A stretch of 64,000 nucleotides of DNA from Escherichia coli O157:H7 (GTDB taxonomy: Bacteria; Pseudomonadota; Gammaproteobacteria; Enterobacterales; Enterobacteriaceae): NCBI RefSeq assembly GCF_013167455.1, contig NZ_CP038328.1; one strand, given 5' to 3'. The position numbers and the translations under genes were made by a program. The notes under the pieces were generated by a model. The model was not told the DNA's origin. It did not search any database and worked only from the letters and a program-made list of their open reading frames with translations. The first letter of the stretch is position 1. Each line of letters begins with the position of its first letter. Positions 11,022-13,556 of the stretch are shown here, one piece after another.

Positions 11022-11543
11022 ATGAAACGTTTTAGTCTGGCCATTCTGGCGCTGGTTGTTGCGACCGGCGCACAAGCTGCCAGTGAAAAAGTCGAGATGA
11101 ACCTCGTCACGTCGCAAGGGGTTGGGCAGTCAATTGGTAGCGTCACCATTACTGAAACCGATAAAGGTCTGGAGTTTTCGCCCGATCTGAAAGCATTACC
11201 TCCCGGTGAACATGGCTTCCATATTCATGCCAAAGGAAGCTGCCAGCCAGCCACCAAAGATGGCAAAGCCAGCGCCGCGGAATCCGCAGGCGGGCATCTT
11301 GATCCACAAAATACCGGTAAACATGAAGGGCCAGAAGGTGCCGGGCATTTAGGCGATCTGCCTGCACTGGTCGTCAATAATGACGGCAAAGCTACCGATG
11401 CCGTCATCGCGCCTCGTCTGAAATCACTGGATGAAATCAAAGACAAAGCGCTGATGGTCCACGTTGGCGGCGATAATATGTCCGATCAACCTAAACCGCT
11501 GGGCGGTGGCGGTGAACGCTATGCCTGTGGTGTAATTAAGTAA
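11022..11543 (+). CDS. sodC: Periplasmic Cu/Zn superoxide dismutase SodC, 173 aa
   Basis: ATG at 11022 with GGAGG SD (11013-11017); signal peptide MKRFSLAILALVVATGAQA; Cu/Zn SOD motifs (GFHIH, GGGGERYACGVI). ORF-track start 10971 is an upstream extension. Confidence 0.9.
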   Translation: MKRFSLAILALVVATGAQAASEKVEMNLVTSQGVGQSIGSVTITETDKGLEFSPDLKALPPGEHGFHIHAKGSCQPATKDGKASAAESAGGHLDPQNTGKHEGPEGAGHLGDLPALVVNNDGKATDAVIAPRLKSLDEIKDKALMVHVGGDNMSDQPKPLGGGGERYACGVIK

Positions 11544-13556
11544 TTAAGAGGCCAGCGTACCTTGCGGTGGTGCTTGCTCAAGTTGCGAAAGCGAGCAGTA
11601 CAGCCGCCAGACAATTGCCGCCAGCTCACGGGCGGCAGGTTGATGATGGCGGGCAAGGCTGTCGCAAATCCGCTGTAATTCTTCAAGTGTGGCCGCCAGT
11701 GATTTTTGCTGAACGCCACGCTCACTCATCACTCCCCGCAACAGTGAAATACAGTTATCCCGTACTCGCGATAACGGATCGGAACGCGATTCCCAGTCGC
11801 GTAATTGCCAGACAACATGAGAACAGTTCAGCAGCACTATACCCCAGCGTAATAACCAACGGCGAGCCAGCGCATCCTGGCTGTTACTCAACTGACTGAC
11901 GTGATGATAAGTGAGCGATTCAAATTCGCTTTCACTCAGTGTTGGATGGCGGCTTAGTTGATCGACAAAATCCCGGCGCAGCGCGCGAATATGGCGGCGG
12001 CTTTTGCGAGCATCCGATCCTGGACGCAGAATGGCGAACGCTAACCACGCCAACGCGACGCCAACGATTTTTGCCAGATTATCGTTAAGAAAATCAGCAA
12101 AATTATACACCGGGGGATTAGTGACGGCGATAAAAGAACCCATAAAAACAATCAGTTGCCCCCACAATGCGGCAAATTTGGGCATCTGCAATTTAAGAAG
12201 CTGCATTGTCGCCAGCAGTGGAAAGAGAAACAGTAAAAATTGCCACAGATCGCTAATCTGGACCATCAGACCAAATTTGACCACAAAGCTGAATAGCGAA
12301 AGTAACACCAGCGTGCGCATCAGCAGTGACAACGACTTAAACGGTGCTGCGACGGCGGAGTAGAGTACGCAGCTAATCGCTGCCAGCGTTAATGCATTGG
12401 CACCGGCATCCCATTGCGAAGCAATACTCCATGCGCCAATCATCATCAACGTACAAAATGTACGCAGTCCGCTCCACATAGCTTCGGCGTTATCGGTATG
12501 ACGAGCCAGGCCGGATGTCCGTGGGAGTCTGGCATGATCATCTACATCGCTTTGCAGACGATGTAATTCCTGACTACTTTGCAGATAAAGGCGGCAAAAA
12601 TAACGTAGTCGCTGCCAGAAGGCGACGTGCCGATAGTCGGCGACGTTGGTCGGGCGTAGCGGGGCGATAATACGTGCGACGGTGTAAACATCTGTTTGCG
12701 AACTGGCGAGCGCCGTCAGCAACTGTTCGAGAATTTCTCGCGTGGCACCTGGCGGTGAGGGCCAGTTGAGCAACATACGTCGCAGGCTGGAGATGACACT
12801 GGTCATACGTAATTGCTGGTGGAGCAGCGCATTAAGGCGCGCGTTTTGCTGGCGAAAACGATAGTGGCTCCAGAAAGCCTGGATACGCAGCAAATTCATG
12901 GTCAGTATCTGCCCAATCACCCCTTCATGTGCTGCACGAATGGCATCGGTTGTTTCAGGCTGCCAGAGTAAACTGGCATGTTCCAGTAATCGGGCGTGCA
13001 TGTTTTTCAATGCGGTTAAAAGGGCTGTAGCATCGGAACTGCTAGGCAGGATCATCATCATCATGCCGCCGCACAAAATACCGACAATCACCTCGCAAAC
13101 GCGCGCCTGAGCGATATCCCACAGCTGGCTGGCCTCAGTAATATTAACCATCGGAAAGGCGATGATGGCAGCCGTGTAGCCCGCCAGTTGAAATGCATAC
13201 GCGACGTTATTCGTGAAGTGCGCACAGGCCCAGGTACAAAAGCCAAGCCACGCCGACATGCTCAATAGAAAAAACCACGGCTCATTGAGCGTATGCCCGG
13301 CAAGAAGCAGTGCCGCAATGGCTCCCAGTAAACTGCCAGCGATGCGTCCGAGGCTTTTGCTGATGACACCGCCAACGGTGGGAAAGCTAACCACTGCAGC
13401 CGAGGTCATCGCCCAATAGGGTTCATCCAGATTCAAATAATAGGCAACCGTCAGCGCCAGACACATGGCAATGGTATTGCGTAACGCATAACGCCATTGC
13501 GCCAGCGTGGCCCTGAACCAGGGCAAATTGCGCAAGGACCATGACGATGCGTTCAT
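11544..13556 (-). CDS. ydhK: FUSC-family putative efflux membrane protein YdhK, 670 aa
   Basis: ORF track 670 aa; multi-TM; last gene of ydhIJK cluster. Confidence 0.85.

Follow-up and report, generated by a model that had tools for sequence, protein, structure and literature searches.

Spacer-free convergent gene pairs of Escherichia coli: read-through limited by Rho, and a conserved hairpin of fumC inside tus

When two genes converge and leave no DNA between their stop codons, the question arises where their transcripts end and what ends them. In a stretch of 64,000 nt from Escherichia coli O157:H7 (contig NZ_CP038328.1, in the following the window), three pairs of genes are arranged in this way, and because intergenic DNA is absent, any transcript end that lies beyond a stop codon must fall inside the partner gene. 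The gene names used here are those under which RefSeq annotates identical O157:H7 DNA as well as K-12. The window is O157:H7-type E. coli DNA and is colinear with K-12, with zero indels at the sodC/ydhK and fumC/tus junctions.

Stop codons and terminators of the convergent pairs

The gene of the periplasmic Cu,Zn superoxide dismutase, sodC (11022..11543, plus strand), ends with the stop codon TAA at 11541-11543, and ydhK, the final gene of ydhIJK that encodes a FUSC-family transporter of 670 amino acids (11544..13556, minus strand), has its stop at 11544-11546. The two TAA stops abut in TAATTA (11541..11546) with a spacer of 0 nt, and the sequence is identical in K-12. A preliminary description of this DNA had placed the two stops directly next to each other within TAATTAA (11541-11547) and had let fumC and tus overlap in TTAA, and both statements proved right: the class II fumarase gene fumC (49014..50417, plus strand, stop TAA at 50415-50417) and tus, the gene of the replication terminus-site binding protein (50414..51343, minus strand, stop at 50414-50416), have the 4 nt at 50414..50417 in common. 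The third spacer-free pair consists of ydgC (53572..53907, plus strand) and folM (53904..54626, minus strand), which overlap by 4 nt in TTAA at 53904-53907. Neither this third pair nor the conserved hairpin that is found 12 nt 3' of the fumC stop had been listed in the preliminary description. The limits of all these genes are given by their open reading frames together with the annotation.

All three pairs are oriented tail to tail on opposite strands. In fumC/tus and ydgC/folM, both stops lie inside one tetramer of the CTAA/TTAA/CTAG/TTAG class, and by their TTAA these pairs are like the 4-nt overlaps that Lillo and Krakauer (2007, PMC2174442) found to be the modal class of prokaryotic convergent overlaps, whereas in sodC/ydhK of E. 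coli the stops are not combined in one tetramer but abut. The same study counted 58 convergent overlaps in E. coli. In the window, the spacing is zero or negative in three of the ten convergent pairs, a local density that was considered as a possibly meaningful feature and dropped because the counts are too small. With a rough estimate of our own that about 9% overlap genome-wide, the probability of finding at least two overlapping pairs among ten is about 0.2, and the spacer-free arrangement is within chance expectation.

A spacing of 0 nt or less is found for tus/fumC in 76 of 79 Enterobacteriaceae species, with a range from -14 to +35 nt, and for sodC/ydhK in all seven that were sampled, with a range from 0 to -25 nt. 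In the latter pair, overlaps of 8-25 nt occur in Salmonella, Enterobacter, Leclercia, Kosakonia and Yokenella, and the spacing is 0 nt in E. coli. Judged from these species, the spacer-free spacing is old, and it is probably a tolerated outcome of genome compaction and no regulatory device.

The other seven convergent pairs of the window all possess a spacer, which has a length of 24-50 nt and contains a GC-rich hairpin of 10-16 bp, with folding z-scores from -1.7 to -5.7 across the two strands. In each of these seven pairs, there is one shared intergenic bidirectional terminator of the kind described by Ju 2019 and in the preprint of Wang 2022, and in a distant relative also tus/fumC has such a shared terminator, in a spacer of 74 nt. 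The three spacer-free pairs differ from these in that they have no intergenic DNA. Folding z-scores are -0.9 and -1.6 for sodC/ydhK and +0.2 and -0.5 for ydgC/folM, with a hairpin in neither of the two, and scans for consensus terminators and promoters at the sodC/ydhK and fumC/tus junctions gave nothing above shuffle expectation. At their gene ends, the spacer-free pairs lack an efficient intrinsic terminator; fumC is followed by a hairpin that has no adjacent U tract, and no comparable hairpin is found after sodC or ydgC. As the stop codon of tus is downstream of the fumC hairpin, this hairpin can be used by fumC only, which is another difference from the shared terminators. A search for conserved structure 3' of sodC with RNAalifold in eight species was negative, with a covariation term of +0.38. 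A candidate stem at 11574-11598 is 94% paired but was equalled by 197 of 500 shuffles and shows no covariation, and it was discarded as unsupported.

Read-through into the partner genes and its limitation by Rho

Published transcript data are available that bear directly on these junctions. The pairs ydhK-sodC, tus-fumC and folM-ydgC are all named as overlapping transcripts in the excludome of strain MG1655 (ExcludonFinder 2025, PMC12288877), and ydhK-sodC and tus-fumC are given as convergent overlapping units in half or more of the 58 RNA-seq sets of MG1655 (Table 1 of that study). Regions of Rho termination have been mapped in K-12 on the strands of all three plus-strand partners (Adams 2021, PMC7815308): on the sodC strand at K-12 position 1723937 (minus strand in K-12), which lies antisense to ydhK at a distance of 197 nt beyond the stop, with a score of 5.10; on the fumC strand at 1684895 (minus strand in K-12), antisense to tus at 290 nt beyond fumC, with a score of 5.62; and on the ydgC strand, antisense to folM, with a score of 3.64, all of which are scores that rest on small counts (14-83 reads). 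In the 800 nt upstream and downstream of the site, 74 and 14 reads were counted on the sodC strand without treatment and 29 and 28 with bicyclomycin, and on the fumC strand the corresponding numbers are 83 and 16 without treatment and 36 and 39 with bicyclomycin (Supplementary file 2 of Adams 2021). With bicyclomycin, the read counts are level across the site, and therefore a block of Rho abolishes the drop on both strands. Antisense positions are the largest location class of Rho regions in that study (51.5%).

When the coordinates are mapped to the window, the sodC read-through RNA covers 11544..11740 (plus strand), antisense to the 3' end of ydhK and up to the Rho region at ~11740, and the fumC read-through RNA covers 50418..50707 (plus strand), antisense to the 3' end of tus and up to the Rho region at ~50707. 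A rut-like stretch with more C than G is found on the sodC strand at 11644..11893 (plus strand), where the C/G ratio rises to 1.65 between +150 and +250 after the stop (95th percentile of the window), and another on the fumC strand at 50468..50617 (plus strand), just 3' of the hairpin, where it is 1.58 at +50 to +150. These peaks, at about the 93rd to 95th percentile of the window, are modest, and they adjoin the mapped Rho regions. The RNA ahead of the termination zone is untranslated, rich in C and poor in G, which is a feature by which Rho termination is recognized. Among the curated Term-seq 3' ends from three growth conditions, none lies in the K-12 regions 1684000-1686999 and 1723000-1725999, which extend at least 1 kb to each side of the junctions (Adams 2021, PMC7815308). 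The junctions resemble in all this the way in which Rho is known to end antisense RNAs and RNAs that are not translated (Peters 2012; Adams 2021, PMC7815308), as the bicyclomycin-sensitive regions are antisense to the partners and adjoin C-over-G stretches. They differ from the Rho-terminated antisense RNAs in that the RNAs here are read-through tails of mRNAs and are not independently initiated, and there is nothing unusual about them.

It could be thought that head-on collision of polymerases, as modelled by Ju 2019 and Wang 2022, ends transcription at the junctions instead of Rho, and the fumC hairpin could have a role in such a model. This is very improbable, as the model relates to Rho-independent terminators, yet both loci are sensitive to bicyclomycin. 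The efficiency of the collision grows with the expression of both genes, but tus and ydhK are weakly transcribed, and because the hairpin is located upstream of the tus stop, a halt of the tus polymerases at this position would truncate the tus mRNA.

The read-through is asymmetric. Antisense and sense reads amount to 21.0 and 17.7 for ydhK and to 12.3 and 26.6 for tus, and they amount to 1.5 and 66.4 for sodC and to 3.9 and 103.3 for fumC (Huang 2020, Table S1c). It had been proposed in the preliminary description that the transcripts of each gene must end inside the convergent partner, and this holds for sodC and fumC, as evidenced by the published overlap and the Rho regions; it is not directly supported in the reverse directions, ydhK into sodC and tus into fumC, where the antisense reads amount to only 2-4% of the sense reads. 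Antisense overlap and Rho-dependent termination had been offered there as two possibilities, and both in fact occur together, as is evident from the overlap in the ExcludonFinder data, the bicyclomycin-sensitive regions, and the antisense reads. Double-stranded RNA captured with p19 reaches 140-683 RPM over tus (Huang 2020), and the p19 duplexes inside tus correspond to window positions ~50886-50909 and ~51060-51081, which is 470-660 nt past the fumC stop. These duplexes are located deeper in tus than the Rho peak, and therefore some antisense RNA escapes Rho or starts within tus. A further p19 duplex is found in the 3' end of folM (window ~53927-53949), and none is listed for the sodC/ydhK junction. 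In an rnc-38 mutant, the antisense reads of tus (19.8) exceed the sense reads (8.6) (Huang 2020).

The presence of both pairs in the published E. coli excludome (PMC12288877), where indeed all three are listed by name, the abundant tus dsRNA together with the excess of antisense over sense in the rnc-38 mutant, and the persistence of a spacing of 0 nt or less in the compared species could all be taken to indicate a selected excludon, in which sodC or fumC, when induced in stationary phase or by oxidative stress, would repress ydhIJK or tus by transcriptional interference and by the cutting of the RNA duplex by RNase III. Such a function is nevertheless unlikely. Excludons have their regulatory meaning from mutually exclusive expression and from repression that depends on RNase III; these pairs are known from transcript overlap, and a pair with zero spacer meets the coverage threshold of ExcludonFinder almost automatically. 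The junctions drift (-14 to +35 nt and 0 to -25 nt, see above), which fits better to a neutral turnover of stop codons than to a tuned overlap. Rho restricts the overlap to the final 200-300 nt of genes of 930 nt (tus) or 2013 nt (ydhK), and the partner genes are weakly expressed anyway.

It is rather likely that these are ordinary spacer-free pairs, in which the stronger gene reads into its partner until Rho stops the polymerase, with a protective 3' hairpin in case of fumC. In such pairs, there is no space for a shared terminator hairpin between the genes, as it is used by the other convergent pairs, and a polymerase on the stronger gene (sodC, fumC or ydgC) would pass the stop codon and enter the coding sequence of the partner. 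Past the stop, the ribosome would be gone, and the tail RNA would be untranslated, antisense, and moderately enriched in C over G, so that Rho could load and would then stop the polymerase at no sharp site but over a few hundred nucleotides, around +200 nt in case of sodC and around +290 nt in case of fumC. The outcome is that sodC and fumC each overlap the 3' end of their partner, ydhK or tus, by a short antisense tail. The interpretation by overlap and Rho termination is supported and already published, and as the published data already show the Rho-stopped read-through of the stronger genes, the finding is an ordinary one.

A hairpin of the fumC transcript within the tus gene

A small new detail is a hairpin of the fumC RNA that is hidden within the 3' end of tus. 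The stem-loop covers 50429..50470 on the fumC transcript (plus strand), with the two arms of the stem at 50429-50441 and 50458-50470, and it was assigned by folding, covariation and natural controls. It starts 12 nt past the fumC stop, lies within the final 55 nt of the tus ORF, and has a stem of 13 bp and a loop of 16 nt, with a folding energy of -24.5 kcal/mol for the 42 nt alone. The 45-nt segment 50427-50471 that contains it folds with -25.6 kcal/mol, which is the 0.05th percentile of 4264 45-mers of the window. In the fairly conserved tail that follows, AGGUUUAUAA, a U run begins at +4, that is 3 nt past the stem, and there are 4 U in 8 positions. The hairpin thus has the GC-rich stem of an intrinsic terminator but neither a loop of 3-8 nt nor a U run at a distance of 0-2 nt, and because of the 16-nt loop and the late, sparse U tract it was not called by the consensus scan. 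It does have the properties of a protective stem-loop, as it is stable, located just 3' of a coding sequence, and devoid of such a U tract. In this it is like the protective stem-loops of Dar and Sorek (2018, PMC6061677), which are also stable and without U tract and are followed by a mild C-over-G stretch and then by Rho termination, and it differs from them by its position inside a convergent coding sequence, tus, and by its long loop. Rfam gave no family match at gathering scores across the whole window and none at an E-value of 1 or less around the hairpin, and searches of the literature for earlier descriptions of a terminator or 3' hairpin of fumC returned nothing specific.

The stability of the stem equals that of real terminator hairpins, and one could regard the hairpin as a leaky Rho-independent terminator in tus that sets the 3' end of fumC, with cryptic terminators inside the reading frames in case of the other genes. 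The U-containing, fairly conserved tail would agree with this, and so would the canonical spacer terminator that the distant relative has at the equivalent position. In addition, of the 116 genes that take part in convergent overlaps, 23 have a predicted Rho-independent terminator and most are without one (Lillo and Krakauer 2007, PMC2174442), and mixed or transitional cases exist according to Dar and Sorek (2018, PMC6061677). It is improbable, however, that such a terminator is the explanation, as the downstream/upstream ratio with bicyclomycin is about 1.08 (39/36), which means that almost nothing stops at the hairpin. Also the long loop, the distance of the U tract and the missing call by the scan speak against it, and no like hairpin is present after sodC or ydgC. 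Supplementary file 1 of Adams 2021 (PMC7815308) lists no 3' end at the base of the hairpin (K-12 16851xx), which speaks against a terminator and against a protective hairpin alike, but this is weak evidence because the expression of fumC was low under the conditions of that study.

The hairpin is conserved with covariation. In an alignment that comprises 80 distinct sequences of Enterobacteriaceae species, the two arms pair in 94.4% of the cells, and changes on both sides occur in 6 of the 13 pairs; none of 500 shuffles, which ignore phylogeny, reached any of the hairpin measures, and in slid controls 19-46% were paired. The fumC-sense strand is more stable than the opposite strand in 76 of the 80 sequences, with 94.4% versus 83.0% paired cells and a mean minimum free energy of -23.8 versus -17.8 kcal/mol, and there are 133 G-U cells versus 14 A-C cells. 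The conserved RNA structure is thus found on the mRNA-sense strand of fumC. For the Arg codon of Tus within the stem, 91% of the species use CGG or CGA, compared with a share of 20.5% at the other Arg codons of the same tus genes, and compensatory combinations in the stem are Ser-TCG/CGA, Ala-GCG/CGC and Thr-ACG/CGT. Judged by these codons, the hairpin is kept by compensatory changes and by the rare Arg codons.

This conservation is partly forced by the conserved Tus motif PRLHLY, and the U-G pair that never varies is dictated by a His and an Ala codon, to whose second positions it belongs. Could the stem then be a by-product of Tus protein conservation and common codons that has no RNA function? 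PRLHLY is kept even in Tus proteins of 30% identity, 4 of the 13 pairs are invariant, several positions are second codon positions, and related sequences can outdo shuffles without any structure, a caveat that is stated for the pair-counting tool itself. Even so, this is a doubtful reading, given the rare CGG/CGA at the paired Arg, the compensatory combinations of amino-acid and synonymous changes, and the strand bias in G-U versus A-C cells. Moreover, the complementary arm, which encodes QAQP, is not conserved as protein sequence in distant Tus proteins, in which the stem is lost while PRLHLY stays. This could be seen in natural controls. In a Tus relative of 47% identity, the spacer between tus and fumC has 74 nt and contains a canonical terminator, and there the homologous region inside the reading frame is unstructured (-2.2 kcal/mol), with LLIPRLHLY still conserved. 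Among the 80 species, weak hairpins are found at a locus with a spacer of +35 nt (-18.5 kcal/mol) and where the neighbour is not fumC (-15.5 kcal/mol), and the sole weaker hairpin is that of one locus with a spacing of -11 (-15.2 kcal/mol). The distant Tus control was obtained by a representative search, the homologues from close relatives having all at least 81% identity, and two of the four distant contigs end before the downstream neighbour.

It is thus most likely that the stem-loop is a protective 3' hairpin of the fumC mRNA. Exonucleases that trim the Rho-terminated tail would halt at the stem-loop, and the fumC mRNA would be protected. As a counterpoint, sodC has no convincing 3' hairpin of its own.

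Two proposed codes at the end of tus, and practical consequences

As the hairpin lies inside the tus coding sequence, this segment carries two codes. It can be speculated that the last 55 nt of tus serve both as the Tus C-terminus and as a 3' stabilizer of fumC, held across the Enterobacteriaceae by rare Arg codons and compensatory changes, and that fumC read-through under control of SoxS or sigma-S acts as an antisense brake on Tus, a combination for which the chances are low. If the antisense brake were true, oxidative or stationary-phase stress would be coupled to how strongly the replication fork trap acts.

Beyond careful annotation, the importance of these findings is slight. In practical terms, recoding, deleting or tagging the 3' end of tus may alter the fumC mRNA, and the same caution applies to the ends of ydhK and folM. 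The case illustrates how E. coli ends transcription when there is no room for a terminator, with Rho clearing the untranslated antisense tail, and it indicates that a hairpin at the 3' end of an RNA can become part of the reading frame of a neighbour gene and may then be retained by selection at synonymous sites.

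Convergent genes without a spacer

E. coli O157:H7 chromosomes match the 1.3 kb around the reported finding at 100% identity, and of 5426 complete E. coli genomes 5425 contain this stretch. According to the RefSeq annotation of an identical strain and K-12 MG1655, the gene order is lhr, rnt, gloA, nemA, nemR, ydhL, ydhF, sodC, ydhK, ydhJ, ydhI and slyA in the first part, and fumA, fumC, tus, rstB, rstA, ydgC and folM further on. The preliminary description had named sodC, ydhK, fumC and tus correctly, and the two junctions that it pointed out are borne out by the ORF ends: the sodC stop TAA (11541-11543, plus strand) directly abuts the stop of ydhK (670 aa, stop 11544-11546, minus strand) with a 0-nt spacer in TAATTAA (11541-11547), and fumC (49014-50417, plus strand) and tus (50414-51343, minus strand) have the TTAA at 50414-50417 in common. 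A third pair, absent from that description, is ydgC (53572-53907, plus strand) and folM (53904-54626, minus strand), the stops of which overlap in the TTAA at 53904-53907.

The window is inverted relative to K-12, and at the sodC/ydhK and fumC/tus junctions both are colinear with about 1% substitutions and 0 indels, so that a K-12 coordinate x converts exactly into a window position, as 11543 + 1724134 - x at the former and 50417 + 1685185 - x at the latter. Elsewhere, uidA (39711-41524; divided by a frameshift into the ORFs 39711-40424 and 40412-41524), uidC (42933-44197; frameshifted) and ydhF (10045-10941; internal stop 10831-10833) are pseudogenes here and intact in K-12, and the uidA lesion is the classic O157:H7 glucuronidase-negative marker. 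An internal 96-nt tandem repeat in rsxC (26535-28853, minus strand; 6.4 copies, 92% matches, 26582-27197) explains the 32-codon length gap between 772 aa here and 740 aa in K-12, and the ydgA/uidC spacer has 44 nt here (44198-44241) versus 225 nt in K-12 (1691361-1691585), which thus has some 180 nt of additional intergenic DNA.

The ten convergent pairs in the window have spacers of -4, -4, 0, 24, 35, 38, 43, 44, 46 and 50 nt. For E. coli, 58 convergent overlaps have been counted, and the modal 4-nt class results from the four-base sequences CTAA, TTAA, CTAG and TTAG (Lillo and Krakauer 2007, PMC2174442). As about 9% of convergent pairs overlap by our own rough estimate, two or three spacer-free pairs in ten are not beyond chance and are unremarkable. 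A Tus scan with one genome per species gave 80 Enterobacteriaceae loci, and in 79 of them the convergent neighbour of tus is fumC, with stop-to-stop spacers of -4 (46 loci), 0 (18), -11 (11), -14 (1), +10 (2) and +35 nt (1). For sodC/ydhK, Salmonella has a spacer of -25 nt, two Citrobacter species have 0, Kosakonia and Yokenella -8 nt, and Enterobacter and Leclercia -22 nt. Judged from these sequence comparisons, the lack of a spacer is a stable trait of the whole family, whereas the stops themselves shift in position. Such a pattern would be expected if compaction is tolerated and stop codons turn over neutrally, and not of a finely tuned overlap.

Transcript ends at the junctions

When a 120-nt segment with the junction at its centre was folded for each of the ten pairs, on both strands, one GC-rich hairpin of 10-16 bp was found in the spacer of all seven spacer-bearing pairs (z -1.7 to -5.7 across the two strands), each filling its 24-50 nt spacer: lhr/grxD (1924-1973), slyB/slyA (15288-15333), gstA/pdxY (20651-20693), add/ydgJ (32505-32539), ydgA/uidC (44198-44241), tqsA/pntB (60631-60654) and ydgD/mdtI (62783-62820). 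These hairpins are the usual shared terminators, and only those at add/ydgJ and ydgA/uidC have a clear U or A tract on either side. No comparable hairpin was found in the 120-nt folds of sodC/ydhK (z -0.9 and -1.6) and ydgC/folM (z +0.2 and -0.5), and in a consensus terminator scan, terminator-like sites were no more frequent than expected from shuffling. A 9-bp interrupted stem at 11574-11598, conserved in 8 species without covariation, was rejected as a sodC 3' hairpin. The exception among the spacer-free pairs is fumC/tus, with a 13-bp stem on the fumC strand (z -2.8).

Any terminator of overlapping convergent genes must sit within the coding sequence of the partner, and a Rho-independent terminator has been predicted for only 23 of the 116 genes in E. 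coli convergent overlaps (PMC2174442). ydhK-sodC, tus-fumC and folM-ydgC are among the 165 convergent pairs that ExcludonFinder (NAR 2025, PMC12288877) lists for transcripts that overlap in half or more of 58 MG1655 RNA-seq sets. A DirectRNA-seq comparison of untreated and bicyclomycin-treated cells has mapped Rho termination regions (Adams et al. 2021, eLife, PMC7815308, Supplementary file 2), three of which lie at K-12 1723937 (minus strand; about window 11740, antisense to ydhK, score 5.10), 197 nt beyond the sodC stop, at 1684895 (minus strand; about window 50707, antisense to tus, score 5.62), 290 nt beyond the fumC end, and at 1681110 (minus strand; antisense to folM, score 3.64), 585 nt beyond ydgC. 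From the 800 nt upstream to the 800 nt downstream of the listed position, reads go from 74 to 14 on the sodC strand and from 83 to 16 on the fumC strand in untreated cells, and with bicyclomycin from 29 to 28 and from 36 to 39 (PMC7815308), so the block of Rho wholly abolishes the drop on both strands. The C/G ratio of the read-through strand peaks at 1.65 between +150 and +250 after sodC and at 1.58 between +50 and +150 after fumC, at about the 93rd-95th percentile of the window, and both peaks adjoin the mapped Rho regions. A termination driven by collision of the opposing transcription does not fit, because the loci are Rho-dependent and the partner genes weakly expressed.

In the curated Term-seq lists for three conditions, both junctions lack a discrete 3' end out to 1 kb or further (PMC7815308; zero coordinates in K-12 1684000-1686999 or 1723000-1725999), which agrees with diffuse Rho termination and subsequent trimming, and low expression may contribute as well. 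In the wild type, sense and antisense reads are 17.7 and 21.0 for ydhK, 26.6 and 12.3 for tus, 66.4 and 1.5 for sodC, and 103.3 and 3.9 for fumC (Huang et al. 2020, mBio, Table S1c), and p19-captured dsRNA across tus amounts to 140-683 RPM in the same study. The overlap is therefore real and one-sided, with the stronger gene being transcribed into its weaker partner. The earlier proposal that transcripts end within the convergent partner, with antisense overlap or Rho-dependent termination, was thus right in view of the published overlaps, bicyclomycin-sensitive regions and antisense reads. A selected excludon, in which read-through from fumC or sodC would repress tus or ydhIJK, is hinted at by the dsRNA across tus and by an rnc mutant in which antisense outnumbers sense, but the junction positions drift and Rho restricts overlap to the final 200-300 nt.

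RNase III duplexes captured with p19 have also been published for tus (about 50886-50909 and 51060-51081). At 470-660 nt beyond the fumC stop they lie past the Rho peak (about 50707), and they may come either from fumC read-through that escapes Rho or from antisense RNA starting within tus. Another published p19 duplex lies 20-42 nt beyond the ydgC stop. Within ydhK, some 600 nt ahead of its stop, the sense strand also has a Rho region (about window 12149, minus strand; K-12 1723528, plus strand, score 3.17, PMC7815308), and many ydhIJK transcripts may therefore not reach the sodC junction.

A fumC hairpin inside tus

The stem on the fumC strand (50429-50441 with 50458-50470; 13 bp, 16-nt loop) starts 12 nt after the fumC stop, within the last 55 nt of tus. 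The 42-nt hairpin folds with -24.5 kcal/mol, and a 45-nt segment containing it (50427-50471) reaches -25.6 kcal/mol; among 4264 45-mers of both window strands, genuine terminators included, this is the 0.05th percentile. Over 80 distinct aligned sequences, standard pairs fill 94.4% of the pair cells, 6 of the 13 pairs show changes on both sides, none of 500 shuffles matches any of five measures, and sliding the partner by 1-3 columns leaves 19-46% paired. Pairing is better for fumC-sense than for tus-sense RNA (94.4% versus 83.0%), with G-U in 133 cells versus A-C in 14, and the mean MFE is -23.8 kcal/mol for the fumC-sense versus -17.8 for the tus-sense fold, the former being stabler in 76 of 80 sequences.

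The peptide LIPRLHLY is kept in Tus proteins at 30-58% identity, and the stem could be a mere by-product of such protein conservation, but this is contradicted by rare-codon bias, compensatory changes and natural controls. Base 3 of a Tus Arg codon and base 1 of a Pro codon (CCG) 30 nt off form a pair; 72.5% of species use CGG for this Arg and 18.8% use CGA, versus shares of 14.8% and 5.7% elsewhere in the same tus genes. Where Pro is replaced by Ser (TCG), the Arg codon is CGA in 5 of 11 cases, and with Ala (GCG) or Thr (ACG) it is CGC or CGT. At the locus of a Tus relative (47% identity), a 74-nt spacer with a canonical terminator (AAGCCATCT...AGATGGCTTTTTTT) lies between tus and fumC, and the homologous 42 nt in the ORF fold with only -2.2 kcal/mol. 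Among the weakest stems of the 80 loci are those of the +35-nt spacer locus (-18.5) and of Klebsiella indica, which lacks the fumC neighbour (-15.5), with a single -11 locus weaker still (-15.2). Stability, conservation, strand, codon usage and natural controls together indicate that the stem is an element of the fumC RNA, retained only where fumC abuts tus.

Klebsiella indica (locus L060, 3431-3499) is the sole species of the 80 without fumC beside tus; the convergent neighbour is an MFS transporter gene at a 65-nt spacer, and the in-ORF hairpin has lost its outer four pairs and kept the inner nine, with one compensatory A-T pair. Upstream of tus, at 12 nt from its start codon, there is a Ter-type site (AGGATGTTGTAACTAAAG; 51355-51372, minus strand). 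It has one mismatch to the TerB core and agrees with the known TerB of the tus promoter, the route of Tus autoregulation.

Probable protection of the fumC 3' end

As a canonical intrinsic terminator the hairpin was rejected, with its 16-nt loop and a U run that starts 3 nt past the stem and has 4 U in 8, and under Rho block read-through is essentially complete. A leaky intrinsic terminator is possible but disfavoured, as the bicyclomycin counts speak against it. According to a published model, Rho-dependent mRNAs end at a stable stem-loop without U tract after 3'-to-5' trimming by PNPase and RNase II, with mild C-over-G enrichment and the true termination zone downstream of the stem-loop (Dar and Sorek 2018, PMC6061677). 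The layout at fumC matches this model, which suggests a protective 3' hairpin of the fumC mRNA; as no published 3' end was found at the foot of the hairpin, we infer this role from the layout. sodC has no equivalent hairpin. At these junctions, the RNA of the stronger gene runs into the weaker partner, where Rho stops the read-through diffusely, and the tail would then be trimmed, in the case of fumC probably up to the stem-loop within tus. Both the junctions and their interpretation have been published before, by gene name or coordinate, and the dual-coded fumC hairpin within tus, a further example of an established type of element, is the sole addition to the literature.
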